A stretch of 63,986 nt of DNA, filler included, from Hausera hauseri (taxonomy: Eukaryota), in NCBI GenBank assembly GCA_046269625.1. It is 11 parts of 11 records of this genome, joined end to end, with 100 filler letters (N's around TTAATTAATTAA, not from the genome) between each part and the next. Parts side by side here need not be neighbours in the genome. Positions count along the whole stretch, not along the records: positions 5,614 to 12,013 come from JBJURY010104320.1; 10 more parts are not named here. One strand, written 5' to 3'. Shown piece after piece: positions 3,122 to 58,395 of this stretch. Within the stretch, counting starts at the first letter, position 1; each line of letters begins with the position of its first letter. Made by a program: the position numbers and the translations under genes. Under the pieces are notes generated by a model that saw only the letters and a program-made list of their open reading frames with translations, was not told the DNA's origin and did no database searches.

Positions 3122-4767
3122 GCAGTGACCCATTAAAATTTCTGCAGGAATTTCTAGTTTCTTTATTTATTTTTCTTACGTCACCCGGAATGCGGCCCGA
3201 ACGGCTGTGTGTACCCCAACACATGTGGTATCAAAACGTGCGTCTCGGTCCCGAGAAGTGTGCTATTATTTTTATAAGCATTCGGAGTTACCATGGCGAC
3301 ATAAATTGTAAAAAACGACCCCCCAAAATCCCATTAAAGTCAATGGAGCGGGGGTCCGAAAGAATCCTAAAAATCACCTATTTTTGAGGAATTGCTGTGT
3401 CGTCATAAATTCACGTAGAAATTCCATTAAAAATTCTTTTTGTAGAGACGCCCGAGATCTCTTCTAAACTGAAGACAGCACGTTCATATTAATTACGGTT
3501 TGTCCACGATTATTTTCTAAGCGCACCAAAGTTTTCGATTTTTCTGAAAATTAGAGTGTGAGTGTCGGTCGGCTAGAGTGCGGAGCCTCCAAGATTTTTG
3601 ATCCAAAAATATTTTTTAACTCGCCCTCCCGGCCACAAATATCGCCCGATTGGTATAAAAGTCGATGATGACATTGATACGCATGCCTGCTCCCGTAAAA
3701 TGTTTTAAAATTAGTTCTAAGGCGTTCGGTTTTCTGTCAAGGAGCTTCAGACCACGGTGAAGCGACAGGAAAAATCACAATCTGACCCATTGTTTTCCAT
3801 ATATTTCTGAAAACATCACAGCTCAGCGCACACCATCTCTCTCTCGTCGCTGTTATTTCTGTGACTGAGGTAGAAATATGAATCGCGGTAATATCGGAGA
3901 GGACAGATAGCCCTCTCATACGCTTCAAACGGTTTTCGAATAGGTATCACGGTTTTCGAACTGGAAGTTTTTGTTCGCAATGCTTTTTTCACTGAAATTC
4001 AAGTAGAATTCCTTTGATCTGGATCAGAGCTCAATCAGCCTCACAGCTGGCAGAGGGAATTAATTACCATAGCAACGGAAGAAAGGCCAGGGCAGAGCTT
4101 CTGAGTAGAAGGCTGAGCAGAATGTTAGAACTACATTAATGGCAGAACTCTGTTACTACAGAGGACAGCTGAGCTCCAAGTTAAGAACTACAATGATGGC
4201 TGAACCACAGCTACTCATAGGATTAGTGGAACCATTTATAACAAAACTAACTGCTTTGAGAAGTTACAATTCTATCTCTCCCTCACTTGCTGATGTGGCC
4301 ATTATATAGCTGGATTTACCAAATCACTGTTACACATAGGATTAGTTTGGTCTTTTAAAATAAAGGTAACTGAAAATTTCAAAATAAAAGCCTTTACCTT
4401 TTTCACATCAAGTAATGGCTGTTTTGGACTTATTACAACTGGTTTAACCAAACCAGTGTTACATATTGGATTAGTGTGGACAGTTAAAACGAAGCTAACT
4501 GACAATTTCAAAATAAAAGCCTGAATATTACTCTGAGATTAATGCACCGCCACAGGCGGTGCAAAGAATATTAGCCTTTATTATCCGTTGTCCCAAGGTC
4601 AGTGCACCGCCGCAGGCGGTGCTAATACTATCAGCCTTTACTATCTTTTTCTCTCAGGTTAGTTAGCTAATTAGCATTAGCCTTTTCCTAAATAAACAGC
4701 TTTTATCTGTTTTCCTTGCTTATTAGCCATGTTCAGTATACTGAATGGAGTAAGTCAAATAAGGACA

Positions 4768-5613: not shown

Positions 5614-5798
5614 CTATCGTTGAATATATGTCTCATATCGATCGGAGGCTTAATATCGATCTTATTATTTTTTATCGGAAATCGATCGACACCTATTTCA
5701 ACGGATTAAGCACTTCAAAATGCATAAAATGAGGTACTGGCCATTTCTGTAAGTTGAATGAGTTCCGAGATATAATCGTTTGAACAAGTTTTTCAAAT

Positions 5799-7288
5799 GT
5801 GGAAAAGTTTGATAAGGCTGGAAAGAAACGTGGCAAATACAGAGTCCAATCAGTGGTTGATTCTGGTGTTCAAACTGATTTGGAGATAGCTGAATATTTG
5901 TTTCCTGAATTAGATACGGAGATTAAAGATTTGTTACAGGCTAAATTTTCACATATGCCTATCGAGATGTTGACCCATCCGAAGAGGCGTCAATTTCGCC
6001 ATTTTGTGTATCGCGAAGGTGGAAAGTTTGTTGCCGTATAAATTTTTGTTGCGGTTTTCAGATTTTATTATAGAGAAGTATTTATTTTTATTTATTTCGA
6101 TTTTAATTTTTTTTAGATTCAGTTTGTTCCGTATACAGGAGGAACGTACCCCTAGTGGTAATTTGCATTGGCATTTTTGTGCCTGCTCACTAAATCCAAT
6201 GCGGTTGGATTACTTTAGGAATAACTTTGATTTGAAATTTGTTATTCCTTTTGTGGATAATTTGATCACTGTTTATAAGGAATTTTTTTGCTTTTTTGTC
6301 TATATAGTTTTTTAGATAAGCCTACTGAAGACTTTATTCCTTTTTGAATATGGGCGTTGCCCCGTAAATATTTGCAGGGATAAGACCACTATTGATTGTT
6401 TGTACCCTTAAATGTGAAAAAGCTTACGGCATCATGTATGAAGTAAATCGAAGGGAGGTAATTCGAGATTTATTTTGAAGTTTAAAGTAAAATCTAGTTG
6501 TCCGTCGGAGTTTCCCTTTATTATTCCAAGCATTTCTTTTGATTTTGACAATCAGGTTATGTCGTGCATTATTTTTGGCGCCAGTGATAATTTTTTGATT
6601 TCCTTTTGTGTTTTAATTTTGTTTAGGAACAGGCAAAACATCATTTGCTCTATCTCACGGGAAAAAACCATTAATTGTTAACAACCTCAATGAGTTTCCC
6701 GTGAGTTGGACGTACGAGCATGACATTATTGTCTTTGACGACGTCAGCTTCTTTCATCAGTCGCAGGAGCAGTTGCTGACGTTGCTTCACAGTCACAAAA
6801 ATGCGACAGCAAAAGTTTTATATCGCATTATCAGTTTTCCTGGTAATGTTCCCCGGTTCTTTTGCTTCAACAATGAGGCCGCTTTTTGGCCAAGACAGCA
6901 AGATCTCATGAACAGGGAGGCATGCAATCGACGATGCATGTTCTTGCGTATTGGTTCCCGCAAACTTTTCGAATCCGATGAAGCGACAATTTCAAGTGGA
7001 GTTGATTTAAATTTTGATGAGCTTGTTGAACAGAAGAAGCGTGAAGATTCCTTAAATGCTCCTGCTGCTCCTGCCGATGTAGTTGAATTTATTGATGTTG
7101 ACGAAATTAAGTCTCCGGTGGTGAGGAAAGTTCGCAGTGTTTCTCCCGATTCTCCACCTCAGAATCATCCGGTTATTCTGTGGAAACCGATACCAAAAAT
7201 TGATACTTACGTTAGTTCCAAGTATCAGCCTGTGGACATTGACGAAGACATTGATTTACAACCTAGTTGCAGTTATAATCCTAAATAA
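5799..7288 (+). pseudogene. rep: CRESS-DNA-virus-like Rep (HUH endonuclease + SF3 helicase), intron-containing, decayed
   Basis: Motif II QEERTPSGNLHWHF (HWH 6166-6174). Walker A G-A-S-G-T-G-K-T after removing the intron-like 6587-6626. In-frame Walker B IIVFDD, motif C RFFCFN, Arg finger ACNRRC. GT-AG intron 6078-6116. AATAAA 7284-7289 overlaps the stop. Frameshifts and stops near 6005 and 6345-6480. Confidence 0.8.
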
Positions 7289-7818
7289 ATATTGATTTGT
7301 TGCATTACCCCTTTTTTCTACATTTATAAGCATACGTTGGATTACGTCATCAGCAGTATTTCGATGATTTCATGTGTTGAGTCATATTTAGTATGTGGGT
7401 TTTCGACGAAATGACTGAACCTTTTGTCAATTAAACTTCTTCTAACGAAGAAATTATGTAAAAAAAATTTTCCGAGTTTCCGTTTTAATTGTTATTTCTG
7501 GGTTTTATTACATAATATTATATAATAAAATGTAAGAATTCTATTTAAATAATAAATACTTTGAAATGTTTTAAAAATAAAATCACAAAAAAACCATGCA
7601 GATATAAAATTAAATAAAAAAAAACATAAATCTTACGACGAAATACAATTTAATGAAAAAATATGTTCATCACGTCAAAATCATAAAGTATTTTCTACTT
7701 CTGTTTCCAAACGATTGTTTAAAACCAAATCTTAACGTGCAAACGTAATGCAGCATTCCAACAACATGACACTTCACAAAACAATACGAAATGCACATTA
7801 ACCATAGTCATAGTATTA

Positions 7819-8170
7819 CCCTTAATACTTCCGGACACGCATAACCAGGTGAACTAATTTAAAATAGCTTTCAAACGACCAATTGATATGATATTATTAC
7901 CCAAAACTCGTTTTAACCATCGCTCCTTCAGGATGAAGAGATGCCATTCCAAAATCGGCAACTTTTATATTTCATTTGTCCTCCAACAATAAGTTTTCTA
8001 TGTTAAAAATTTCGGTAGCTAAATGGAGTAGACTTTAAGAAACAGAATTATGACGTCTACTAATCTTGAATTATAGATATTTTACAACAAAAAAAAATTT
8101 ACCTTTCTTATTAAGTATTCTAAAATTTTTCCCGCTTGATCACATTTAGATATTTAATCAAATATAGCAA
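7819..8170 (-). pseudogene. Degenerate BRSK/SAD-1 family Ser/Thr kinase fragment
   Basis: Minus strand reads [43 protein letters not shown] across a GT-AG intron (7900-7854), versus BRSK [21 protein letters not shown]...ETSCGSPHYACPEVIR. Weak upstream match AGKILEYLIRK (~8100-8135). Confidence 0.8.
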
Positions 8171-8937
8171 AACAATCAAAAACAACCATTGCATTTCCAG
8201 AGGAAAACTGTGAAAAAAAAAGAAAAAAAATCATGAGTAACAATTATGAGATAACCAATAAAGTAACGCAATCACAAAAGAAGTAGTTCATTTGTCATTG
8301 AATCGCAAATGATAATGTGTGTATTCCATGTAGATAATAAACATCTGTGGATGCATAAAACTATCCTAAATTCTTCATGTTAAAATGCAATGTATTATGT
8401 AAAAAACAATGTACTATATAAATTACTTTAAACAATGAGTTACTGTGGATAATGCTTGGACGTGTATCGTTTGAATTAGTTGTTCTCATCAATAAAATTG
8501 GGACACAAATAATCGATTTTTAACAATGGCAACATTGTCAGCAAACATTTTGTAACAAATTATCAATCGGTCAAAATCACAGATATTTACAAATGCAATG
8601 AGGAACATCAGTAAGTATAAATTTTACTTTAATAGAAATAATCAGTAAAGTAACCATAAAAACCACGAAACATACAGCGAATATATATTAATACTATTAA
8701 TAATATCAATACATCTGTTGAGTCGGCGTCCCAGTCGAAAGGTAACAACACCTCTACTAAGAATTCTGTGATAAAAAAAATCGATACAAAAATAATGCCT
8801 ACTTATGAGACCAAAGAAAACAAAGAAAGAAATTGCTAATAACTCAAAATCATAACTTTTAAATTGCAATTGATTCTACATAACACAGAAATCAATGCAA
8901 AATATCGGATAGATTCAGGTCAGGTGTTGCACATTGT

Positions 8938-9072
8938 TCATCAACGGGTTTCATAAAGTCCACTCTTTCCGATGTATATGACCCATTGAATGACTTTGTG
9001 ATTGAAGTAGTTCAGTTTCGGTTCGAACATTTTCAAGTAACGCACCTTGATTCCAGACGGGGCGAATGGGAC
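8938..9072 (-). pseudogene. AP2M1: Degenerate AP-2 complex subunit mu C-terminal exon
   Basis: [43 protein letters not shown] versus AP2M1 [44 protein letters not shown]. Confidence 0.88.
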
Positions 9073-12013
9073 CAGACATGTACGAATTGGACAAAATATG
9101 AATGGCTCACGTCCTCTCACCCTCCCCTTGTCGAATATTAATGAGGAGGAAATGAATGTTACGAAAATGCTCACAACAGACAATACATCAATTAAAATTG
9201 TAAAATTCCAGTTAAACGTTTTCCTTTTCGTTTTTCGTAATAATTCATCTGTAGTTGACGTTGCTTATCTTTTCTTGATTAAAAATGATTTTCAAACTTT
9301 TCCACATCCCAGTGACAGTATTTCTTTTTCAATTGACAGTATCAGCGTTAAATTGGCGATTAACAGCAGAAAAATGATCAATTCTAATGGCACTTAATAA
9401 ATTGAAAAAAAGAAATTTGGCACTTACTACTGATGGTGATTGGCATTTCAATCATTTTATGGCAGTGGCGATTTTCGGTAATGAAAATAAATTTGATTTA
9501 TTTATTTTCATAGTCATCCGTAAAAATTATTTCTATTACTGATTCAGTACGGCTTTATGGTAATTTCGATTGGAAAAAAAATTAAATTATTATTTAAAAG
9601 ACCATATGTTCAATACTCACTAATTTTTGCAATGAACAAAAATTTAAATGCTGTTTGGTAATTTACAAATGGTAAAATAAAATCGTCAGTATCAATTTGT
9701 TTCATTATTACTGTGTTTAGATGAAGTTTACCTTAAGTGTTATATATAGATTATTTATATACATTGTAACATTAATAATGTATTGATAAAATTAAAAGTC
9801 GTAAATAAGTTATCAATAGATATTAGAACAGCTTAACAAAAAAATTACAATTTACTATAGTACAAAAATTTGTAATATACATGTAATGATTAAGGATAAT
9901 AATATTTAAATACGTCATAAATAATATGTTGCTTTGTTGCAATAAAATACATTTATCTATATAGACTATGGAATGAATTAAATGCACAAATTTCATATAT
10001 ACACGATAATCTATTACTGTTTGTTGACGCAAAAATTTGAATTTCAATATAAATATTATTAACCATCACTTTTATTTTTATTTAATAATAATTTTAAGGA
10101 TCTTCAAGGACAGTGTTCCATATATGGAATGGCCGTTACCTAGGAAATTTCATGGTGAATAACCAAATTGAATAACTTAAACTAGAAGGCAGTTTAGAAT
10201 AAATATCTTAAGCATCTTTTTCATAGAAACACAAACGAATATTAAATAACTAGTTAAAGTAACATTGTCTCACTTTAACGTTGTAACTATTTGTCATGTT
10301 CTTAACAAAATATTAGTCAAATCTTTATCCATAGCACATCATTTTCACAAAATGTATATGTAAAATCAATTAGATATTCCATGGTACATGTTACTGCATA
10401 CTTTATAAATAAACGTTTTACACAATATTTTATAATTTGTTACATTATTATACTCAGCGTATTATTATAAATTCAAAATAAATAATATATTTAAGATTTA
10501 TAACAACAATTTCTTGATCTGTGAATACTAAAATGTATGTTATATGTGTAATTCTACTTCCTTTCATAAACTAGTTTAACAGCATCCAAATGCTGCATTT
10601 GACAAAACTTTGTATTTAATAATTTTTCATATAGATACAACTCTTCGTTTAGTGAATTATTTTCAAATCCTTAATAAATTAATTACTTAAATGTACTGTT
10701 TTTAGATTTAAGAATATAACAATATATTATTAATACAATGAACCATGTAATTCATAGAAGTCTTGCTCTGAATCAATACCGTTCAGACAAAATAGTTGAA
10801 TACCAGTTTGAATTATATTATATAACTAATTTGGCCAATTACACAGATTAACTTTGATAATTCAGAATTAAAAATATGGAAACAATGGAGATTATTTCTG
10901 GGCAGTATATTTTAAGGAACCTGCCGAATTTGTCGATGGACACTTCGTAATGAATCATTAAAGGAATCTGTAGAATTAAAGTAGAAACGTGATATTATTA
11001 CAAGAGAGATTGTCGAATTGTAACGGGTGCATTCCACTGGAGTTGTTGAAGTATGGCAGATTATTGGAGAAATATTTTTATTGAATTACAACAGAAAATA
11101 AATTTCTTTTGAATCACTTATATGGCTGCCAACCGAGGATGAGTATTGGTTGTAGTGCAGGAATAATGATGTCAAATGACAGCTTTGTTAATGAAATAAT
11201 TGACAGCAGAAATATTGAACATTCATAATGTAAGCTGAAAATTCTTCAACTGGAATCAGTTTGCAATGAAAATTGGCAAATTTGGTTATCGAAATTTGAA
11301 AATAACTAAACTTGAAATGGAGTTATGTTGTAAGTTAAATTCAAAATTCTTTATTTGTAACCACAAATTTTTCAGTAACTGTTATATTTTGTGTCGGTGG
11401 TACATTGTCTGTTGAAGAAATCAATGGAGAAGCTTGATGAGAAATTTCGTAAATTGAATAATCTTTCTGGTTTAGCGACTGGTTTGTTTTTGAACGGTTC
11501 TAAAAAGTAATTTATCTTTTATGTTTTCTGTTGTCTTTTGTTTTACTTTTTGATGACATGTTAAGTGGCTCAATGTGGAAAAATATGACTCAATATTTAA
11601 TGAGTATGGTTAAATGTGAGTAAAATTAATATAGCTTACACAGGTTCAATATTAATAGAAGTAAAAAATTTTTTATAATTTTTACCTGTAATTCAGTAAA
11701 CATGTATGTATACGTATGGCAATATTAAAGTAATAGCAATTTATCAAACAAATAGCAAAAAAGTGATTGTATGATTTTATTTAATCCAAAAGATATTCAC
11801 TAAAATAGTCTCCTTCGTGTTCGACCACCAACTGTAATTGTTCAGTCCACTCATGAAACGCTGATTAAAGCACACTTGCACATGTGCTATACATTTGAAA
11901 ATTGCTATATAGGAGTAGTAAGACATGGGGAATCGATTGGCGCTCTCAGAATTTTCGAAAAATTTATGCCTTCCAAGATATTCGATAATATTCGGTGAAA
12001 ATCGATTTTTATT

Positions 12014-14899: not shown

Positions 14900-16138
14900 A
14901 TCATCTTTTCTTAAAAAATCTGTTGTGACCGTGGCTTTCTGACCTGTGATCTGATTTTTGATGAGTTACGTAACTGGTCCTCGTTTTTCAATTGTTGTGT
15001 ATCCTGGAATCCATCTGTTCTGCATTTAGGACTTTCTGTGATGCACGCTATAATATACTTTATCTCCGATATCGAATTCTTGGTACACTGTCTTATCTGC
15101 AGTTTGGTCCTTGCGTTTTTGGAATGATTTTCTAATGTTTCTGCTTACTTTGATTGAAATCTCATGCAATTTCTGCAGCAAGTACTTGTGGAAATCATCG
15201 CCTTGATACCAATACCATGGCGTTAACAAATTGTCTAGAGGGAATATACGTTCCCTACTAAATATCATTTCATATGGGGAAAACCTTCTGTTTTCCATTA
15301 TACGTAGGGTCATAGCAGCCATGTTTAAATATAGATCCCAATCCGTTGGTTGATCCTTAACGTATTTTGTAATAACATCATAGATAACTTTATGTTGACG
15401 TTTGTTGACCCCATTTGGTCCCGGATTGTAATACAACATCTTTATGTGTTTAACGTTTAGTTCTTTAAGCGTGTCATTTATAGCTTTGTTGACAAATTCC
15501 GCACTGTTGTCCGTGATGATTTCTCTTGGACAACCAAAGCTCGGAATAAATTGTTCCACTAAGATATCGACTATATTTTCGGCTGCTTTACTTGGAAGTG
15601 GATACAATTCCGGCCAACAACTATATAAATCCACGATATGAAGTATATATGCATTTCCAGATGGCGTCAAAGGGTGGGGACCAGATAAATCAAGACTGGC
15701 CTTCTCGAAAAGGAAATCTGCATGATCAGGCTCTTGCATCGGATGTTTTAAATGTTCCATATTTCTTAGTTTGCATGGTTGGCAATTTTTTATATATTCT
15801 GCGATCTCCTTTTGCATATTTGTACAAACATACTTTCGTTTAATTATCGTGAAAGTTCGATCTCTTCCCAAATGACCAAGTTTATCGTGATATTGTTCTA
15901 ATATTCTTGGTTTTAAATGTGTTGGTTTACACAACTGATATTCTCCTTCTCCTTCCATTCTATATAGTATCTCCTCTTCTATTAAATATCTTTTCCATCG
16001 GATCACCTTCTCTTCTTTGGTGGAATTTATATCATTAATAATTTGTAGTAGTTCTTTATCTTTCTTTTGTTCTTCTTTCATATTTATTTGTTCGATTTCG
16101 CTCTGCTCTGAATCTATTTCCATACAAGTTTCCTGCAC
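14900..16138 (-). pseudogene. Ty3/Gypsy integrase (HHCC, DDE core, GPY/F-like C-terminus), inactive
   Basis: YHDKLGH...CQPC zinc site, DLSGP, TDNSAEF. The catalytic E is replaced (NGVNKRQH). After the stop at 15026 the frame continues RWIPGYTTIEKRGPVT*LIKNQITG. Confidence 0.92.
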
Positions 16139-16240
16139 TTGCGTTTCGTTGGAATTTATAACAGAAAATTGAAGCGTATGGTCGTCTAGATCAGGCGTGC
16201 CTTCCTTATCTTCTGATTCTACATCAGTGTGAATTTTATC

Positions 16241-16340
16241 NNNNNNNNNNNNNNNNNNNNNNNNNNNNNNNNNNNNNNNNNNNNTTAATTAATTAANNNN
16301 NNNNNNNNNNNNNNNNNNNNNNNNNNNNNNNNNNNNNNNN
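16241..16340. other. Artificial contig spacer
   Basis: N44-TTAATTAATTAA-N44. Confidence 0.97.
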
Positions 16341-27412: not shown

Positions 27413-30012
27413 GAAGGCTCATCCGCGAAGCCGAAGAAAGCCAAAATAAGAAGAGCGGTTGGACTTTAGCAACAATAAAGGGGTTACTGTTGCATGTGCA
27501 CAAGTATTCTCCCATGAGAGGCAGCTACTACATACCGCTTTCTGGTTGGATAGTTAAGAAAAAAGCATGCGTCAGTGTCCATAATAATGACAGCATGTGC
27601 TTTATGTATTCTATTTTGTCAAAACTAGTCCAAGATCAACATAATGCTTCCCGAGTTTGGATATATAACAAAGTGCAACACACATACGACTTCACCTGCA
27701 TTTCATTCTCGCCGAGCCTAGATGAAGTTGTAAAATTTGAAAGCTTGAACAACATTTCCATCAACATTTTCGGATTGGAGGAGAACAAATTTTATCCCTT
27801 ACATGTGCGCAAGGGAAAATTGGAGGATCATAGAGATCTGCTCCTGCTAGATGATGGAGAAACGAGGCATTTTATCTGGATCAAGAATTTTGAGCGCCTC
27901 ACATGATCCCAAATATCCAAGCATACATCAAGGCTAGAAATATGCAAATAGATGCTTTACCCATTTTAATGGAGAAACAGTCGCAGAAAAGCTGGTGGAG
28001 CAGAAGACCTACTGCAATAAAAACTATTGCATCCGAGCAGAATTCGCCAAGGAGGATTACCTGGAATTCAAGGAGTTCGAGAAGATGCAGAAGGTGCCCA
28101 TTGTCCTATATTGTGACTTTGAGGCCATCCTCAGTCCAGTTCACAGCTGCAGCCCCAATCCACAACAAAGCAGTACTACAGCATACCAGTATCATGAGTT
28201 ATCATCATACTGCATGTATGCTAAAGGACTGGACAAAGAACCCTACCTATACAGGGGTGTAAATGCAGCAGCACATTTTATGCAGCATCTGAAACAGTAT
28301 GCCCACAAACTGGAAGACATGTTGCAGCAACATAAAGACTACATGGTGATGTTTCAGTAAGAAAAATGTAAATGTCGCAAAGCATCAAAATGCTATTTAT
28401 GCAGGAAGCCATTCACATGGGACAATCACAAATTCACGGATAACTGACGTTTTGCAGGCATATACTGAGGCGCAGCGTACAACAGTTGCAACTTACGCTG
28501 CAAGACATGTACATATGTTCCCGTGGTATTCCACAATCTTAGTGGATAGGATTCCCATTTCATTGTTTGAGAATTGGGTAATATTGAGGGTAACGTTAAT
28601 GTGACTCCAAATAGTGAGGAGAAGTATATCACCCTTACGAAGCATGTGGGCCGCATCAGACTTCGCTTCACTGATAGCTTCCCTTTATGACATCGTCACT
28701 GGACAGCCTTTTGAAGAACCTTCCAGCTAATGAACTCAAAAAGACAAAGAGGTTCTTCCCGAATACATTTGACCTGGTGAAGCGGAAAGGAGTGTTCCCC
28801 TATGACTATACAACGTCATGGAAAGCACTGGAATAAGATGCATTACGGGCCAAGAAGGACTACTATAGTCATTTGCATACAGTCATATAAGCGATGCTGA
28901 TATGAGCACGCCCAAAGAGTATGGCAGACCTTCCAGTGCAGGACAATAGGGAAATACTGTAATATCTTTCTCCTCACAGATGTCGTGTTGCTTACTGATG
29001 TCTTCGAAAGCTTCCGGGATGTGACCCTTAAGAGTCATAAGTTAGATTCAGCCCATTTCTTTACATCTCCAAGAATGAGTTGGGCAGCTATGCTGAGCTA
29101 TACCAGCATAAGGCTCCAGTTATTGAAGGATTACAATATGGTCCTCATGATTGAGAGAGACATCAGGGGCGGAATCGGCCAGGCCATATACAGGTACAGT
29201 GAGTCCAACAACAAATACATGGTAGATTATGATCCATCCAAGAAATCCTCATGTATATCATACCTGGATGCCAAAACTTTGTATGGATGGGCAATGATCA
29301 ACCCATTGCCCTATGGTAACTTTCAATGGGTGGAGCAGCAGCAAGACCTAAATATTAAAGGTATGGATCCCAATGGAGATACGGACTACATACTGGAGGT
29401 GAACGTGGAATACCCACATAGCATCCACACAAGGCATGAGCAGCTGCCTTTTCTCCCGGATAGAAAGAGGCCGCCAAATGGTAAGCATAAAAAGCTGCTC
29501 TGTCACCTCGAAAACAGGGAGAGGTATGTAGCCCACTACGTAAATCTCCAACAGACCATCCAAAATAGACTTCGGGTCATCAGGATTCATCGAGCCCTGC
29601 CTTTCAGCCAGTCCAAATGGCTGAATACATACACATACCTCAATACCCACTTGACAGCCAATGCCAAGAACAAGTTTGAAAAGGACCAATTCAGGCTGCA
29701 TAACAACTCAGTCTTTGGCAAAACTATGGAGAACATCCGGAACCGGATAAACATCGAGCTGGTATGTGACTGGAAGAGGACAAAGAAACTCATCGCCAAG
29801 CCCAACTTCCACAGCAGCACAATCTACACATAGAACTTAATGAGCATCCATATGCTGAAGACATCACTTGAGTTCAACAAGCTTATATATGTTGGCATGT
29901 CCTTATTGGATCTATCCAAGACCTTGATGTATGACTTTCATTACAACATCATGGTCCCGACATTCAAGGAGCTCCAGCTAATGTACATGGACACGGAAAG
30001 TTTCATATACAA
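27413..30012 (+). pseudogene. polB: Protein-primed DNA polymerase B (Polinton/Maverick), copy A
   Basis: KSGWTL, YCDFEA, EndoVII-like C..C...GAAYNSCNL, FHNLSG*DSHF, RKGVFPYDY, YLDAKTLYGWAM, HNNSVFGKTMENIR, YMDTESF. Many stops and frameshifts. Confidence 0.93.
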
Positions 30013-32130
30013 TGTCCATAAAAAACATTTGATTTTTTTTGCCAAATCAAAAAAACAAATATTCAGTACCAATATGCCAATAACGACTTTAAAGGAAAAT
30101 TGAGGGTGCAGTTTATGTGTATTGCACATGTGTAATACACAACCCCGAGAATTGCCACAATACCATGTGGAGCTATTATGGTCACAAATTCAATAGGATC
30201 ATTTATTATATCTGCCCAGAATGTGAGGCTGTATGTGATGGCGAATACATACAGTTTTATAAAGATTACAAACATCATCTGACTGACTTCGCAAAGTCAA
30301 AGAAGATCACATTTAATAAACATAAGCCTGCAGTACAGCATGCAATACCACGGACTGCAGTACAGCCAGATGCAGGACTAAAACGCGCATCAGACACATC
30401 AGGCGTAGTGGCTCCAACAAAAAGCCAAAGACAGCGGCCAGTAGATGCTGTAGCATTAAAGAGGAAATGCCGCAAATATGTCATTGAGGCAACTGGTCAA
30501 ACAACCGTCAAGGAGTTCCTGGAGTACACAAAGAAAGAAAAAGAGGGGATTCTTCAGGACAATATGAAAGAACTCAAAGCCCTTAAAGTCAGTATAAAAC
30601 TGGAAGCCACATACGTCAATACTGATGGCGAAGAATCCAATAAGGCCTTCAAAACCAAAAATAGACCCATATTGGAAAACACCAATATAGCAGAATAGAT
30701 GCAAGGGGTGCACGAGAAGCCGATCCACTAGGCTGAGGAGAACCATGATAAGAAGAGCGGATGGACTCTGTCAATTATCAAGAGATTGCTTGTGTATGTG
30801 CACAAGTACTCTCCCATGGGTGGCAGTTCCTCTATACAGCTTCAGGAACGGATAGTAAGGAAAAAGGCATGCCATTTTATGTAAACTCGTATGGGATCAA
30901 AATCATGCAGCAGATCGAGTTTGGCTATATTAGGATCTGAAGCACAACTATGGCTTTTAATGTATTAAGTTCTCACCAGCCATAGATAAAGTAAAGTAGT
31001 TCGGTTGAATCAACAATATATCAATCAACATCATTGGGTTGGATGATGAAGGCAAATTCTATCCCCTGCTGATGTGCGACGTTGAATTAGAAAACCATAG
31101 GGATCTGCTTCTACTATATTATGGTGAAAAGAAACATTATGTTTGGATCAGTAACTTTGAACTTCTAGTCTGATTCCAAATTACGAAACATCATGGACAA
31201 ATAGAAATATGTAAACCATGTTTTTCATATTTAAGTGGTGATACAGAAGTGGATATGCTTGAAAAGCACAAAACATACTGCAACAACAATCACTGTATCA
31301 GGCCAAAATTTCCCAAGGATGACTATATTGAATTCACGGAGTTTAAGAAGAAGATCAGTGTCCCATTTTTTACCTGTTTGTGATTTTAAGGCTATTCTGA
31401 GTTTAGTTCAGAAATGTAATCCCAGTCCTCAACATTGCAGCACAAAGGCATACCAATATCATGAACTCTCATCGTATTGCATGTATGCCAAAGGACTGGA
31501 CAGTAAACCATTTCTATTCTGAGGTCCAGGTGCAACAGCACATTTCATAAAGCGACTTGAAGACATGGCTCATATGCTTGAAAACGTGTTTCAGCAGCAT
31601 AAGAATACAATAAGCATGTCCTGGAAACAAGAATAATGGCGCAAGGCAACAACATGTTACTTGTGTGACAAGCCCTTCACCAAGGATAATCATAAAGTCG
31701 GCGATAATTGCTTTTTTACAGGTGCATATAGGGGCGCAGCATGCAACAACTGCAATCTTTGCTGCAATACATGCACATATGTGCCATAATCTCAGTGACT
31801 ATGATTCCCATTTCATTGTCCGAGAATTAGGCAACATTGAAGGAAATATTGAGGTGATCCCCAACAGTGAGGAAAAGTATGTCACTTTCACTAAGCATGT
31901 TGATAAAATCCGACTTCGCTTCATAGACAGCTTTCGTTTTATGTCGTCTTCACTGGATGGTTTAGTGATGAATCTCTCTGCAGAAAAATTCAAGGAGTAG
32001 ATGCGATTCTTTTGCACTACATTTGACCTAAACAAGAGGAAAGGCGTGTTTCCCTATGACTATATAACTTCATGGGAAACACTGGATGAGACCTCATTGC
32101 CGGCCAAGAAGGACTTTTACAATATCCTCT
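30013..32130 (+). pseudogene. polB: Protein-primed DNA polymerase B, copy B (N-terminal half)
   Basis: N-terminal Cys/His module, AFKTKN, KSGWTL, VCDFKA, HNLSDYDSHF, FIDSFRFM, RKGVFPYDY. Truncated by the contig end. Confidence 0.9.
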
Positions 32131-40233: not shown

Positions 40234-42020
40234 TGGCTAATTAGATTGCTTACCTTAATGATACTAACAAAGCATATAAGCGCGGTAACCGTTTATGATT
40301 TCGATAAGTTTAAATTAGGACAGAGATATTCCTTATGGACCTGGAAGTATGCGAGGACGCCAGACCGCACAAATTGGAAACAAGAGAGAAAAGTTACTTC
40401 CTGTATCAACATCAAGAATTGATATCGTTAGACGGAATGGAGTGCATGCTGAGACGATCGCGTAGTATCTTCCACTGTGGACTGGTACACGGACATTCCT
40501 CCATAATCAAGCCAACTACTCCGCTAATTCCAATGAATTTAGAACGCCAACACTGCAAGCAAGCTAAAGAGACTGGAAGAGTACAGTGGGATAGTATGCA
40601 ATTAGAAATGCAACCAGGTAGTGGCCGGAAGACTAGATATGCATAGCGTATATTGTCACGGAGAGGAATACGACACCGGAAAAGGATTACAATCGAATGT
40701 GGTAGTCGTAGACTTTTATGAATCAGAGATGCGGTCACAGAAAGTAATGTTCCATAATGTCACCAAGTTATACACGGAGAATCAAAAATGCCACTTACAA
40801 GATGGAACCTGTGCTTTTAGAAGTTTGGTTATAATATGGGAACCTCCCTCTGGAAGAAGCTGTAACTTTATCAAAATTAAGGAGTTAAAGTTTAATGAAA
40901 CTACCGGAAAACGATATGTAGACCAATCGGAGGCTAATTCAAGAACACGCGAAGATGTATCGGAACACCCTACACCTACTATATTAATCTCGGACCCGCA
41001 TGGACTAAAATTTATAAAAAAGGAGATGATGACTCGTTGCGATGTAATAATGTTCGCCACAAACTATGAGGCGTTTTTTTGTAGCCGAAATGGAAACAAA
41101 CTCAAAAACCTACAAATTGGAAACGCAGGATGTTCGGATTGAGGATTACCTGAAAAATAGAGACGATTAATTCTACTATAAAGGACAAGTCGGAATAACG
41201 GAATTATATCATAAAATGATAATGAATGACTGCAAATTGGATACAGAAATCATGAGAACTAAAATGTCTCTTATATATGCAAACCCGGAATTGGCTTTTC
41301 CAATAATTCCCATGAGAGAAGGAATTTTCGGTCGAGTTACGGGCGAAGTGTTACTAACCTATGAATGTGAAAAGTGAAAAGTTCCCATCAGTGTAGAAGA
41401 AAAGCGTTGTATCCAGGAACGTCCTGTTATTTATCAGAATACTCCAAGATTAGCTACACCATTGACAAGAGTGATGTTGGATAACGCGACACAACCAACT
41501 ATACTCAAGGATTGTAAAACAAGCTTAGGAGAGCCAATATTTAGACGCAGTGAAACCGACTGGGTTAGTTTACCTAATGGAGATATTACTGCCGCCCCTA
41601 ACAAGCTAACAGGGACGAATCTCGCGAACGAAATTACAAACGATAAATTTCAAGACACCTCATCGAAAGGTATATATAGGCCGAAGGAAATTGAGGCTTT
41701 CAGACAATTCCTTTCCTTTCCACGACAACGTACGCATGACCTAAATCGAGCTATGGCGTCTGTAGTAGACGACACACGATATCAGGCTAAATGGGAATCA
41801 GTACTTGGCGTAAACCACTATCAGAGAGTAACAACAGAAATACTCTACAAAATTTAGGGGAGATTTTTGATCTTCGGACAGGCCGCATCTGGATTTTTAG
41901 CGATATATTTCTTGATACAAATGATTAAGGCAGTCATCCAAGCCGTAATAAACGGATAGGGAATATTTATACTAACCGGATTTTCACGTAAAATTCTGAC
42001 TGCAATCATAACGCCCTTTG
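40234..42020 (+). pseudogene. env: Env: chuvirus (Jingchuvirales)-type glycoprotein with internal signal peptide and C-terminal hydrophobic segments
   Basis: WLIRLLTLMILTKHISA|VTVYD(C/F); IFHCGLVHGHS; YCHG..NVVV; CHLQDGTC..IIWEP..C; LYHKMIMNDC; GEVLLTYEC; C..ERPVIY; GIYRPKEI..SFP; TM FLIFGQAASGFLAIYFLIQMI..G*GIFILTGFS. This motif order matches chuvirus G proteins. Confidence 0.85.
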
Positions 42021-48844: not shown

Positions 48845-51197
48845 AAAGAAAAAATGAACGAATGAAAGATCGAACAAACCAAAGAACAAACAAATGAACG
48901 AAGGAAAGATCGAACGAACAAAACAACGAACAAAAGAAAGAACGAAGGAGCGAACAAAAAGTCGTAAAAACAAAAGAATTTACGAAAGAACGAATGAACG
49001 AACGAACGAACGAAAGAATGAAAGAACGAAAGAACGAATGAAAGAAAGAACAAACGAAAGAAAGAACGGAAGAAAGAAATAACGAGAGAACGAAAGAATA
49101 AACGAAGGAAAGAACGAACGTAAGAACGAACGAACGAACAAACCAAAGAACGAACGAAAGAACGAAGGAACGAAAGAAAGAACGAAAGAACGAAAGAAGG
49201 AACGAAAGAACAAATGAACGAACGAACGAATAAAATAACGAACGACAGAAAGAAAGAAGGAGCGGACGAAAGAACGAAAGAAATAACGTAAGAAATAACG
49301 AAAGGACGAACGTAAGAATGAAAGACGGAATGAAAGATAGAACGAGCGGACGAAAGAAGGAACGAAAGAACGAGCGAACGAACGAAGGGACAAAGTAAAA
49401 AACGAAAGAACGAAAGAACGAACAAAAGAATAGAAGAATGAACAAAGGAACGAAGGAAGGAACGAAAGAACGAAAGAACAAACGACCGAACGAAAGATCG
49501 AAAGAAGGAACAAAAGAACAAATAAAAGGTCGAAAGAAGGAACGAAAGAAAGAACGAACGGACGAAAGAAGGAACGAAAGAAAGAAAGAACGAACGAACG
49601 AAGGAACGAATGAATGAACGAAAGAACGAACGAAGGATCGAATGAAAGAACAAAAGAACGAACGAAGGACGGAGCGAATAAACGAAAGAAAGAGCGAATG
49701 AACGAAAGAAGAGACGGACGAACGAAAGAACAAACTAACGAACAAAAGAACGAAAGGAAGAACGAAAGAACGAAAGAACCAACGAATGAACGAGTGAGCG
49801 AACGAAAGAAGAAATGAACGAACGAAAGAATGAACGAATCAAGGAACGAACGAACGAACGAAGAAACGATGGAACAAAAGAAAGAACGAAGGAAGGAAGT
49901 AAAAAACAAACGCACGAAGAAACCAACGATTGAACGAATAAACGATCGAACGAAAGAATGAAAGAAGGGACGAAAGAACGAAAGAACGAAAGAAAGATCG
50001 ACAAAATGAACAAAAGAAAGAACGGACGGACGAAAGAAAGAACGAAAGAACGAACGAAGGATAGAACGAATGATGGAAGGAAGGAACGATATAACGAACG
50101 AACCAACGGACGATGGAATAAAAGAACGAACGAAGGAATGAATGAACAAACGAAAGAACGAACGAATGAACGAAAGAACGAACGAATGAACGAACGAACG
50201 AAAGAAGGAAACAACGAACGAAGGAACGAATGAACGTACGAACGTACGAACGAACGAAAGAAAGAACATATGAACGAACAAAAGAAAGAACGAACGAAGG
50301 AACGAACGAACGAACGATCGAACCAACGAACGAACGAAAGAACGAAAAAATAAACTAAAGGCCGATCGAACGTACGAATAAACGAACGAACGAACAAACG
50401 AAAGAACGAACGAACGAAATAAAGAATGGAAGAGAAAGTGAACGAAGGAAAGAACGAACGAACGAATGAACGGAAGAAGGATGGAATGAACAAAAGAAAG
50501 AACGACCGAACGAACAAACAAAGGAACGAACGAACGAATAAACGAACGAAGGAACGATGGAACAAAAAAAAGAACGAAGGAAGGAAGGAAAAAACAAACG
50601 CACGAAGAAACCAACGATCGAACGAATAAACGATCGAACGAAAGAATGAAAGAAGGGACGAAAGAACAAAAGAACGAAAGAACGAAAGAAAGATCGACAA
50701 AATGAACAAAAGAAAGAACGGACGGACGAAAAAAAGAACGAAAGAACAAACGAAGGAACGAATGATTAAACGAAAGAACGAAAGAAAGAAAGAAGGAAAG
50801 AACAAATGAACAGAGGATCCAACGAAAGAACGAACGAACGAACAAACGACCGAAAGAAAGAATGAACGAATGCACGAACAAACGAACGAACGAACGATCG
50901 AAAGATAGAGCGAACGAAGGAACGATCGAACAAATGAACGAACAAAAAACGAAAGAACGAACGAACGATCGGAAGAACGAACGAACAAACAAATGAACGA
51001 AAGAATAAAATACTGAACGAAGGAAGGAACGAACGGAATAACGAGAAAACGAAGGAACGATCGAACAAACGATCAAACGAACGAACGAACGAACGGAAGA
51101 ATAAGGATGCAAAAGTACAAAAGGTCGGGCGGGCAAAAATAACAAACGATGAAACGAACTAAGTAAAGAACGAAAGAACGAACGAAAGAATGAAGGA

Positions 51198-51233
<36 letters not shown>

Positions 51234-54200
51234 ACGAACCAAAAAACGAACCAAAGAAGAACCTAACGAACGAATGAACGAACGTACAAACGAAGGAAAG
51301 AAAGAACGAACGGAACAGTGATATAATGAACGAGCGAAAATACAAACGAAAGAATGAATGAACGAACGAAAGAAAGAAGAAACAAAAGGAGGAACGAACA
51401 AATGAACGAACGAAAGAAAGACCGAACGAACGAAAGAATGAAAGAACGAACGAACGAACGTAGGAACGCACGATCTAGCGGACGGACGAACGAAAAAAAG
51501 GAAGAAAGAACGAAACAACGAACGGACGAATGGTCGAAAGAAAGAACGAAGGAAAGAAGAAACGAAGGAACAAACGAATGGGCGATCGACGGGACGGACG
51601 ACCAAAAGAAAGAAAAGCAAGAAAGAACGAAGGAAGGAACGAAAGAAAGAAAGAAAGAACGAAAGAAAAAAGAACGGCGAACGGACGAAAGAACGAAAGA
51701 GCAAACGAACGAACGAATAAATGAACGAAACAACGAACGAAACAACGAAGGAAAGAACGAACAAACGAACAAACCAACGAATGAACGAACAAACAAAGAA
51801 CGAAAGAAAAAAGGAATGAACGAAAGATTGAACGAACCAACAAACGAACGAAGGAAAGAACAAAAGAATAAACAAAAGAACGAATGAACGATCGAACAAA
51901 TGAACAAACGAAGGAATGAACGAAGGAACGAACGGAAGAACGAACGACCGAATGAACGAGCGAAAGAACGAAGGACAGAAAGAACGACCGAACGAATGAA
52001 CGACCGAAGGAACGAACGAACGAAAGACCGAAGGAAGAACGGACGAAAGAACGAACGAAAGAATGATTGAACGAGCGAAAGAAGGAACGAAAGAACTAAC
52101 GAACGCACGAACGAACGAACAAACGAACGAACGTACGAAGGAAACAACGAACGAACGAAAGATTGAACGTACGAACAAACGAAGGAAGGAACGAAAGAAC
52201 GACGGAAACAACGAACGAACGAAAGAAGGACCGAACGAACAAAGGAACGAAAGAACGAACGAATGAAAGAAGTAAAAAAAGAAAGAACGAACGATCGAAA
52301 AACGAACGAACAAGGAACGAAAGAACGAACGAAAGAATAAATAAACGAACGAAAGTACGCGCGAGCGAACGAATAAAGGATCGAACAAACCAACGAACGA
52401 ACGAAATAAAGAATGAAAGAGAAAATCAACGAACGAAAGATCGAACGAAAGAACGAACAAGAAAATGAACGAAGGAAAGAAGGAACAAACGAATGATCAA
52501 AAGAAGAAACGAGCGATCGAAATAAAGGACGAAAGAAAGAACAAACGAACGGACAAATGAAAGAACGAATGAACGAGAGAACGAAAGATCGAAGGAAAGA
52601 ACGAAAGGATGAACGAGCGGACGAAAGAAAATAAAAAGAAACGAAGGAAAGAACGAACAAACAAACTAAAGAATAAAAGAAGGAACGAATGGACGAAAAA
52701 AAAGGAAAGAACGAACGAACGACCGAACGAACTAATGAACGAACGAACGAACGGAAGAACGAATGATAGAACTAACGAACGACTGAACGAAGGAACGGAC
52801 GAAAGAAAGAACGAACAAACAAACAAATGTTAGAACGAACGAACGATCTAACAAATGAACGGAAGAACGAACGAACGAAAGAAACAACGAACGATCGATC
52901 GAACGAAATAAAGAAAGAACGAAAGAACATACGAACGACGAACGAGCAAACGAATGAACAAACGAACGAACGAACGAAAGAAAGAAAGAACGATCGAATG
53001 AAAGAACGAACGAACGGAAGAAGGAAAGAACGGACGAACGATGGAACGAACGATAGAGCGAACGAAGGAATGATAGAAGAAACGAATAACCGAAAGAATG
53101 AACGGGCGAATGAAAGAACAAACGAATGATCGAACCAACGAACCAACGAGCGAACGAAGGAACGAAATAACGAAAGAACATAAGAACGGACGAAGGAACG
53201 AAGGAAAGAAAAAACGAACGAAGGAATAGACGAATGAACGCACGGACGAAAGAAGGAAAGAACGAACAAACAAACGGACGAAAGAGCGATCGAACGAAAC
53301 AAGGAACGAAGGAATAAAAGAAAGGACGAACGAAGCAGCGAACGGACGGACGAAAAAAAGAATGAATGAATGAACCAAGGAAAGAAAAAATGAACGAAAA
53401 AACAATCGAATGAACCAGAAAAAAAACGAACGAACGACCGAACGATAGAAAGAACGGCTGAACAAATGAAAGAACTAAGGAAAGAAGGAACGAGGGAACA
53501 AAAGAAAGAACGAACGAATGAAAGAACGAACAAACAAAAGAACGGGAGAACGAACGAACGAACGAACGAAAGAAGGGACGGACGGAGGAAGGAACAAATG
53601 AATGAAAGAAAGAACGAACGAACGAATAAAAGAAGAATCGAATGAAAGAACGAAAGAACGAACGAGCCAAAGAAAATAAAGAAAGAAGAAACGAAAAAAC
53701 GAAAGAACGAACGAACGAATGAAACAACGAACAAACGAACGAAAGAACGAAAGAACGAACGAACGAACGAAAGAAAGAACGAAAGAACGAAGCAAAGAAC
53801 AAAAGAACGAAAGAATGAACGAACGAACGAACGAACAAAGTAAAGAAGGAAAGAACCAACGAACAAACGAAAGAAAGAAAGAACAAACGAACAAACGAAC
53901 GAACGGAAGAGCGAACGTACGAAGGAAAGAAGTAAAGGAAGAGCGAAAGAATAAAAAACGAACGAAATATCGAAAGGACGAACGAATGAATGAACGAACG
54001 AATGATCGAAAGGAAGAACGAATGAACGAACGAGCGAACGAAAGAATGAACGAACGAACGAATGAAAAGTCGAATGAACAAACAAACGAACGAATGAAGG
54101 AAAAATAAAACGAACGAACGAATGAACGAACGGGCGAACGAAAGAATGAACGAACGAACGAATGAAAAATCGAATGAACAAACAAACGAACGAATGAAGG

Positions 54201-54507
54201 AAAGATAAAACGAACGAACGAATGAACGAACGAACACACGAAAGAAAGAAAGAAAGAATAAAAGAACGAACGAATGAACGGAAGAAAGTATGAACGAACG
54301 ATCGAACGAACGGAAGAACGTATGAACGAACGAACGAACGAAAGAACGAACGAACGAACGAACAGACGATCGAACGAACGAAGGACCGAACAAAGAAATA
54401 ACGAAAGAATGAACAAACGAAACAATGAAAGAACGAACGATCGAACGAACGGAAGAACGTATGAACGAACGAACGAACGAAAGAACGAACGAACGAACGA
54501 ACAGACG
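48845..54507 (+). repeat. Degenerate (GAAC/GAAA/GAAT)n tetranucleotide satellite, 5.7 kb
   Basis: The whole contig is built of GAAN units with a strong purine/pyrimidine strand skew. Confidence 0.97.
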
Positions 54508-57365: not shown

Positions 57366-58395
57366 TCAATCTGCGATGCAAATATCCAACTCGTTGTAGT
57401 GCATCTGTGCCACTTGCCGAGATATTGTTTATTCGAACTTTTGCCGCGTGAGCGTAGAATTTCCTGAATGCGATACATCAGGTTTTTCCCGTAATACTTC
57501 CAGTTCCTGTTCGTGAAATTTGCCACGTATTTCGTCACCATTTTCATCTAAAACATAAATAACAGGTGTTTGATTGCTAAAATTCGGAAAACCTCATCGC
57601 TCCAGTTCTGACTGAAATTCTTAATAAATGGTGTCGTACGCAGCTTTGAAATACGTACATAATCACCGATTTTATACTTGGGACGTTTAATTAGTCGTCG
57701 TCGTCGTTGTGTTAGGTTTTGGTAAAGCCACATGTCCAAATCATCGATTACATCCACCGGCCGTAATCCATTGATGCCACGATGTGTTGAATGATTGTAT
57801 GCATAAATAATATCCGGCAGTACATCTACCCAGCGTTTGTTTCCTTGCTTCGTAAAGAATTTGTTTAGGCGACCGCGCAATGTTCGGTTAAATCGTTCAA
57901 CGAGTGCAGCCTTGTATTGGGAAAACACGGAGTAGTAATTTACGCCGAACCGTTTCAAGACCGCTGCAACGTGGGCGTTGTAGAATTCCGTAACCAAATC
58001 CGTTTGTAAATGCTTCGGTTGTTGTTGTTGTTGTTGTATGAGTGTCTGGACAGAGTCGGCAATCTCTTTATCGGATTTAGATTTCACAGCAATTGCACGT
58101 GCAAAACGACTAAACACATCAACGCACGTCAGCACGCACGGATACCCATCGTTGATGCTGGCGTACGGAATCATTTCCACCAGATCCATTTGCCATACAT
58201 TATTTACACCGGCAGCACGGTATGCACTAGTTGGAAACTGCCTTCTTACCGGTTTGTTTAGGCTGTATTCTAACTGTTTCCCGAACCAACTTTGGTCTGT
58301 TGCCTACTCTGTTTGACAGTCTTTGCCAGTTTGTCGACGCCAATACACCCGACAAGATGACGCGGATCAAACCACACGTCGCACGTCGTTGTTGT
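57362..58395 (-). pseudogene. Polinton/Maverick retroviral-like integrase with a chromodomain-like end
   Basis: WQMDLVEM, LTCVDVFSR, LQTDLVTEF, VERFNRTLR, YKIGDYVRI..NWSDEVF, KQYLGKW. Frameshifted N-terminus (WFDPRH..GVDKL). Confidence 0.92.

Follow-up and report, generated by a model that had tools for sequence, protein, structure and literature searches.

A decayed, apparently CRESS-type Rep gene split by three candidate short introns in Hausera hauseri

The locus and its setting

The window, by which we mean the whole 63,986-nt stretch of joined contigs with N spacers between them, contains at 5799-7288 on the plus strand what its sequence identifies as a decayed CRESS-type Rep gene, with an HUH nuclease and an SF3 helicase (hereafter the Rep copy). 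It is found at the beginning of the contig spanning 5614-12013 (JBJURY010104320.1). The following features were identified.

5615-5795, no strand assigned: very high-copy host repeat at the contig start, adjoining the 5' end of the Rep copy
5799-6077, plus: first surviving Rep coding part, covering the N terminus and the region of motif I, the frame being broken at about 6006
6078-6116, plus: candidate intron 1, 39 nt, GT-AG, 69% T, in frame, between motifs I and II
6117-6278, plus: putative exon with HUH motif II, H-W-H at 6166-6174
6279-6315, plus: candidate intron 2, 37 nt with 62% T, where motif III would be expected, with a non-canonical donor here
6316-6586, plus: putative exon with the oligomerisation/linker region and the first half of Walker A, interrupted by frame breaks at about 6315-6332, 6400-6410 and 6480
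6587-6626, plus: candidate intron 3, T-rich and 40 nt long, dividing Walker A, with a non-canonical donor here
6627-7288, plus: putative last exon, SF3 helicase to about 6982 by homology search, then a low-complexity tail
7820-7997, minus: decayed host SNF1/BRSK-type kinase gene, two exons, with a 47-nt GT-AG intron at 7900-7854

The contig stops 185 nt upstream of the Rep copy, within the repeat; the bin 5615-5828 has a summed depth of 42,026 in the public run X1, versus 5-60 elsewhere. The kinase exons start 530 nt downstream of the Rep copy and have weak PDB matches (E 0.65-1.7 with a 23-aa query). One X1 contig corresponds to 7222-7972 with zero differences. Because this contig links the Rep end to kinase exons with a 47-nt intron, we place the Rep copy in a chromosome of a eukaryote with short introns. 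Judging by the kinase type and the transposons present, this host is probably an invertebrate. The kinase stretch as a whole (7820-8210, minus strand) contains a stop in frame and, near 8100-8200, a candidate for a third exon. A second very high-copy short repeat occurs at the other end of the contig (11860-12013), with a summed depth of 533,522 in X1; it and the repeat at 5615-5795 are probably non-autonomous transposons. X1 is possibly the source sample, and support from it is not counted as independent. Run X2, with 10% of the words and low depth, was likewise not used as independent support. The run of only one organism carries the sequence of the Rep copy to a substantial extent.

Elsewhere in the window are a 5.5-kb array of the 4-base unit ACGA (48982-54502, about 1380 copies, 69% matches) and retrotransposon integrases at 15026-16288 and 57548-58303 (Pfam rve). 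Also present, all with zero Pfam matches, are ORFs that we take to be gag-like among long A-rich ORFs of no assigned kind (16900-48460), a presumably envelope-like ORF near 40606-41857, and decayed pieces that we assume to be DNA polymerase B-like, as in Mavericks (27415-32000). The window gave no Rfam matches.

Domains and homology of the Rep copy

An earlier note on this DNA had reported HUH motif II, Walker A and B, motif C and an arginine finger, and all of these were found. The SF3 ORF (6617-7288) encodes Walker B at 6725-6742, motif C at about 6857-6874 and the arginine finger at 6926-6934; Walker A is split by the third insert, and an AATAAA at 7284-7289 overlaps the Rep stop. A phmmer search of 1.84 billion proteins returned 361 homologues of the helicase at E≤0.001 (6 at ≤1e-10, best 1.9e-12), with 28-42% identity among the 150 matches listed, and Pfam Viral_Rep or Gemini_AL1 was matched at E≤0.01 in 16 of 20 homologues scanned. 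The four top Atlas clusters are mostly viral, Cressdnaviricota being the commonest phylum (top score 0.96). Profiles of the relatives of the Rep copy match the PCV2 Rep structure 7LAR; searched alone, the helicase matched no solved structure.

In the nuclease part, the H-W-H stands in an E..G..HxH context and aligns to motif II of the relatives. This exon matches a profile of 11 related Reps over 43 columns at the motif II region (hhalign E 1.8e-4, with a probability of only 49%). Upstream, frame 1 is open up to 6041 and frame 2 is open starting at 5974, and a tentative motif I aligns near 5988-6005, directly ahead of the frame break. The place of motif III (the catalytic YxxK) is taken by insert 2 and a frame break, and the alignment has a gap there.

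Pfam, including Gemini_AL1, gave no matches in the pieces of the Rep copy. There was no match of 6442-6678 to the relatives' profile by hhalign and no usable match of 5974-6312 in the Atlas. The 223-aa ORF had no homologues in a word-indexed search, an alignment-based search of 932-2660-aa proteins only was likewise empty, and exact peptide patterns revealed no close relatives in viral contigs. None of the free relatives found in protein collections and viral contigs exceeded about 40% identity. Also identified were long Rep-like proteins (P0175-P0177, P0180-P0184), four of them annotated in bdelloid rotifers (Rotaria, Adineta) and the others from metagenomes or Logan; those of the bdelloid rotifers are more distant from the Rep copy.

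Three short T-rich inserts

The earlier note had described an endogenous CRESS-like Rep interrupted by up to three tiny introns in the style of the host, and the description, with three such introns, is supported by shuffled sequences and by splice donors in a second version of the gene. Windows of 38 nt with T≥58% and ending in AG, a threshold picked after the inserts had been seen, form exactly three clusters in 5799-7288 (ends 6116, 6315 and 6626), and the same scan gives zero clusters in the more AT-rich 7289-12013. None of 1000 shuffles had two clusters (967 had none, 33 had one). The inserts that had been placed at 6078-6116, with GT-AG ends, and at 6587-6626, within Walker A, are as claimed. 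The intervening one had been given as about 6279-6307: the T-rich insert is there, whereas its end more likely lies at 6315, because the scan picks 6315 and the second version differs in length just past 6307. With the end moved, the peptide VYNFLDK, offered as a decayed motif III, is left without support.

Canonical donors for introns 2 and 3 are present in the second version (one 649-nt X1 contig, about 90% alike), and that for intron 3 is also present in one low-depth X2 contig. The donors of the second version are the strongest support for introns, because the differences fall exactly at the places that introns require. Reading through intron 1 opens a 9-residue gap relative to the Rep of L042, a metagenome relative. 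Length differences from other versions fall at 6080 and 6110 (insert 1), 6282 and 6307 (insert 2) and 6608 and 6610 (insert 3); thus 6 of the 12 length differences listed are in inserts that make up 8% of the gene, a share to be read in the knowledge that T runs slip easily.

The three candidates have the GT-AG ends (for introns 2 and 3, with a canonical donor only in the second version), pyrimidine tract, host-like size and maintained frame of spliceosomal introns, and are likely to be such introns. Flatworm intron sizes have modes near 32 and 58 nt, according to PMC4040987, which would suit a flatworm-like host without establishing one. A fourth intron considered at 6443-6480 was set aside: the stretch is not T-rich and reads like an oligomerisation helix.

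Decay and versions of the gene

The Rep copy is a pseudogene, and an active protein is not expected. It has frame breaks near 6006, 6315-6332, 6400-6410 and 6480 and two dead donors, and its 5' end abuts the high-copy repeat. At least three gene versions were identified in X1, on contigs with depths of about 4, 3.4 and 17, and a further one is 87% alike at 7069-7274. Other versions differ in length at 6315, at 6332 and across 6407-6480. Looking for dispersal, we found that versions leave the Rep copy at 5802 and at 7301, one contig each: one X1 contig has at least 255 different letters before 5802 and one has different DNA behind 7301. The versions may be paralogues, alleles or both. Summed depth in X1 is about 20-50 over the gene versus 5-25 in its flanks, a rough guide that gives no copy number, and suggests few copies of the Rep gene.

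Of 40 substitutions listed between versions, 37 were classed, two donor sites and one 3' site being left out. Third positions of the Rep frame hold 14 of 28 substitutions in 6118-6570 (p 0.050) and 19 of 37 once 5840-5930 is added (p 0.018). Among the substitutions listed, synonymous changes account for 9 of 23 altered codons, and the listed exon differences produce no stops in the Rep frame versus two in each other frame. This is weak evidence for selection on at least one version.

Versions with other DNA before 5802 or behind 7301 and the lack of Rep-frame stops among the listed exon differences would both suit a rolling-circle transposon of low copy number that is based on a CRESS-type Rep and has no capsid. 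Its spliced Rep would nick the element's DNA and insert it anew, and the introns would have been gained in the genome. Self-propagation has been proposed for Rep copies of the salmon louse and Varroa (PMC3198968), and three diverged, intron-bearing relatives occur in one metagenome, where the L042 Rep stands alone between retrotransposon fragments (see below). Yet the versions may be alleles, the depth of the gene is only few-fold above its flanks and far below the 42,000 of the adjoining repeat (again as a rough guide), and the contig shows neither a terminal repeat nor a significant hairpin, nor a nonanucleotide within a loop. Short candidate introns are also present in PEVE, which is extrachromosomal. 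We regard such a transposon as unlikely.

On another reading there was a single old integration: the introns would have been gained in the chromosome, and the versions would be recombining alleles or segmental duplicates. The stretch 6611-6889 is identical in a contig of depth 22.8, versus about 9% difference between versions in 6049-6406, which suggests recombination or alleles with a common 3' half; that zero intron sites are common with relatives is also in keeping with gain in the chromosome. However, three gains in a neutral insert would be unlikely without an expressed, selected phase, and some contigs have different DNA on both sides. We therefore hold a single integration to be quite improbable.

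Phylogenetic placement

Quick first trees placed the Rep copy near Gemini_AL1-bearing Reps or left it unplaced. In careful trees, which left out L040, the rotifer rows and others, it falls within a 21-row set of unclassified Reps that holds PEVE (support 92/87 over the full protein and 91/90 over its N-terminal part), outside the clade of PEVE and L042 and, on a long branch (2.3-2.8), outside every starred set. Members of the PEVE-holding group match Pfam Viral_Rep weakly or not at all. AU tests rejected neither the Gemini_AL1-bearing grouping (p 0.34 and 0.16) nor the PEVE/L042 clade (p 0.15). The best trees, without firm support, would thus assign the Rep copy to the PEVE-holding group of unclassified Reps. 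The geminivirus-related Rep of the earlier note is not what these trees favour, although the corresponding grouping survives the AU tests.

Compared with 222 Reps, the N-terminal pieces score best against L042 (77, versus a median of 28, sd 6.8, and a next score of 57; 0 of 500 shuffles equal), and the piece 6007-6075 also has its top score against the L042 Rep. The helicase scores 105 against PEVE, below the median of 145, and identity between the Rep copy and the PEVE Rep is about 30%. Nuclease/helicase chimerism may explain the discrepancy between the two parts; such chimeras are frequent among unclassified Reps (71%; PMC5923481).

A long branch and three introns could also mark a family of host genes domesticated from a virus, with the Rep copy as one of its pseudogenes; its protein would act on invading ssDNA replicons by binding or processing them. 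X1 seems to contain a less damaged version, and motif III is not readable in the Rep copy. For a conserved gene, 9 synonymous codons of 23 is weak, though, high-identity orthologues are absent from protein collections, and the gene is substantially present in one organism's run only. We hold domestication, too, to be quite improbable.

PEVE and the metagenome relatives

Scans of viral and metagenome contigs yielded 62 related loci, some on one contig. The Rep has a frame change in 6 of the 62 and most are a single ORF, in a screen that is blind to in-frame and terminal introns. PEVE has an invertebrate host and is extrachromosomal. One of the loci (L014/L043) is the type 1 large segment of this planarian virus-like element, which Liu et al. 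(PMC3198968) give as not found integrated. PEVE has terminal inverted repeats of at least 160 nt and, upstream of the Rep, two opposite-strand ORFs; ORF1L had no match in Pfam, PDB or local searches, and its single-sequence fold has a pLDDT of 31.5.

The PEVE Rep includes two candidate GT-AG introns (L014 2952-2999, 48 nt, and 3438-3493, 56 nt), and the annotation ignores both: the annotated protein of 272 aa starts inside motif II and is without motif I. The 56-nt candidate joins an unannotated motif I exon, and the resulting spacing between motifs I and II is 26 residues by our own count, equal to that of L042, which is uninterrupted there. On the opposite side, a Logan homologue of the PEVE Rep begins at the annotation's internal Met.

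Also identified were 40-nt GT-AG inserts in the Reps of three loci from one metagenome: L042 (2864-2903), L041 (957-996) and L036 (1218-1257). The insert site of L042 and L041 is empty in L036 and PEVE, and that of L036 is empty in L042 and PEVE. The three loci are mutually diverged (67-71% DNA identity) and form one clade with PEVE (98/96), in which L042 groups with the PEVE Rep (100/98). An AT-rich stretch ending in AG, with a donor that is not fixed, lies just ahead of motif I in all three. Over the Rep copy and four relatives there are eight candidate intron sites. The findings are thus of neither a single copy nor relatives with the same introns: several versions occur in X1, and no position is common to the Rep copy and its relatives.

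On L042 (1-4596), the Rep is followed by three 109-nt tandem repeats and is flanked by two portions of a non-LTR retrotransposon, with pieces of an Ulp1-like protease, RT-like and zf-RVT; some of the RT seems to be missing at the site. There is no other gene beside this Rep. A 58-kb metagenome contig (L040, 3638-4462) encodes an oligomerisation region and SF3 helicase of the Rep copy's group without a visible HUH domain, possibly a captured Rep amid genes that look, judged by eye, like those of a large DNA virus. In L035 (1348-1459) and L037 (1927-2031), both GC-rich contigs, the Rep has a frame change over 100-110 nt at the nuclease/helicase junction, possibly a longer intron.

Search for other element genes and ends

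From several introns and no recognisable capsid gene, the earlier note had argued for a long-resident transposon or domesticated gene. That argument is weakened. Short candidate introns in PEVE mean that short introns do not imply long residence in a chromosome, and a missing capsid is no argument because the other genes of PEVE lie upstream of the Rep, where our contig ends. None of 225 non-Rep ORFs of the 62 related loci matches the contig, in which the downstream side is host exons and the upstream side is cut off. Within the contig downstream of the Rep copy, nothing matched PEVE-like terminal repeats or ORFs. The nonanucleotide TAGTATTAC occurs at 7811, at the end of a kinase exon, in a weak stem (z -1.43) and not in a loop; the search covered the downstream side, the upstream side being missing.

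Origin and proposed working state

We consider it somewhat probable (roughly 55%) that the Rep derives from a PEVE-related virus-like element that already carried introns during a free life in the nucleus, and that it decayed after integration into a chromosome. Since the Rep of the extrachromosomal PEVE is also predicted to have short introns, those of the Rep copy were likely inherited and not gained in a new kind of transposon. Against inheritance, zero positions are common with the relatives, so gain after integration could have occurred. The long branch, AU tests that reject neither placement, the below-median helicase score against PEVE and the lack of free relatives above about 40% identity also count against this origin. 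Several versions with different neighbours and the third-position bias fit repeated integration of a live virus, and fit a self-propagating element equally.

In its working state, the gene would have been transcribed by host polymerase II and its 37-40-nt introns cut out by the host spliceosome. A spliced CRESS Rep nicks the origin and unwinds DNA as a ring helicase, and the spliced Rep of this element would have done the same with the element's own origin and DNA. Mastreviruses also make RepA, a Rep product without the helicase; retention of intron 3 may have given a similar helicase-less product. One or few copies would then have integrated. The Rep copy has since lost two donors, suffered several breaks in its frame and been truncated at the 5' side next to the high-copy repeat.

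Comparison with known systems

By its motif II and its helicase, the Rep copy belongs to the CRESS-type Rep family. Like the Rep copy, PEVE has an HUH and SF3 Rep with short GT-AG candidate introns, and both fall in the same group in the best trees. Unlike the Rep copy, PEVE has its intron sites elsewhere, is about 30% identical, and has terminal inverted repeats and upstream opposite-strand ORFs, none of which is visible by the Rep copy, where the upstream side is cut. Mastrevirus and genomovirus Reps usually have one, longer intron; the Rep copy differs in having three candidates of 37-40 nt and no Gemini_AL1 match.

Endogenous CRESS Reps of eukaryotes are described as Rep-only, decayed, low-copy chromosomal insertions (Liu et al. 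2011, PMC3198968). The Rep copy resembles them in each of these respects and differs in being split by what appear to be three host-sized introns; the word "intron" is absent from the main text of that paper. Introns are on record in Reps of free CRESS genomes, the host spliceosome assembling the Rep (PMC6186406), and the text available of PMC10269781 has nothing further on introns. The literature covered (few subscription journals; supplements and Rebrikov 2002 excluded) mentioned neither an endogenous Rep with three introns nor splicing of the PEVE Rep.

Helitrons combine a Y2 Rep with an SF1B helicase and Replitrons are without a helicase (PMC10288648). The Rep copy is similar to both in being eukaryotic and HUH-based, the mobility of its element being only putative; unlike that of Helitrons its predicted helicase is SF3, not SF1B (Pif1-like), and unlike Replitrons it has one. 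A geminivirus-like transposon of Tuber melanosporum has a Rep, 42 copies, transposase ORFs and 37-bp terminal inverted repeats (PMC3198968). It shares with the Rep copy a Rep in a repeated genomic element, whereas no transposase ORFs or terminal inverted repeats were seen around the Rep copy. Endogenous Reps, the idea of their self-propagation and the Rep-bearing truffle transposon are thus already known (PMC3198968).

Significance

The annotated PEVE Rep seemingly is without its motif I exon owing to an unannotated intron, which suggests that gene callers under-count such Reps. It is conceivable, and on balance improbable, that PEVE-related Reps in invertebrates with short introns keep gaining introns and are partly capsid-less and self-mobilising, as a third eukaryotic kind of rolling-circle transposon. 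If this is true, an HUH and SF3 transposon lineage beside Helitrons and Replitrons would be a compact system for observing intron gain, and if copies are dispersed with common ends they would form a new transposon class.

Three host-sized introns in one Rep, one of them within Walker A, would go beyond the known endogenous Reps and the singly spliced viral Reps. The short candidate introns of the Rep copy and its relatives occupy sites that differ between close relatives, which points to rapid turnover of introns in a small replicon of the nucleus. For the study of intron gain, new introns whose empty sites are known would be rare material.
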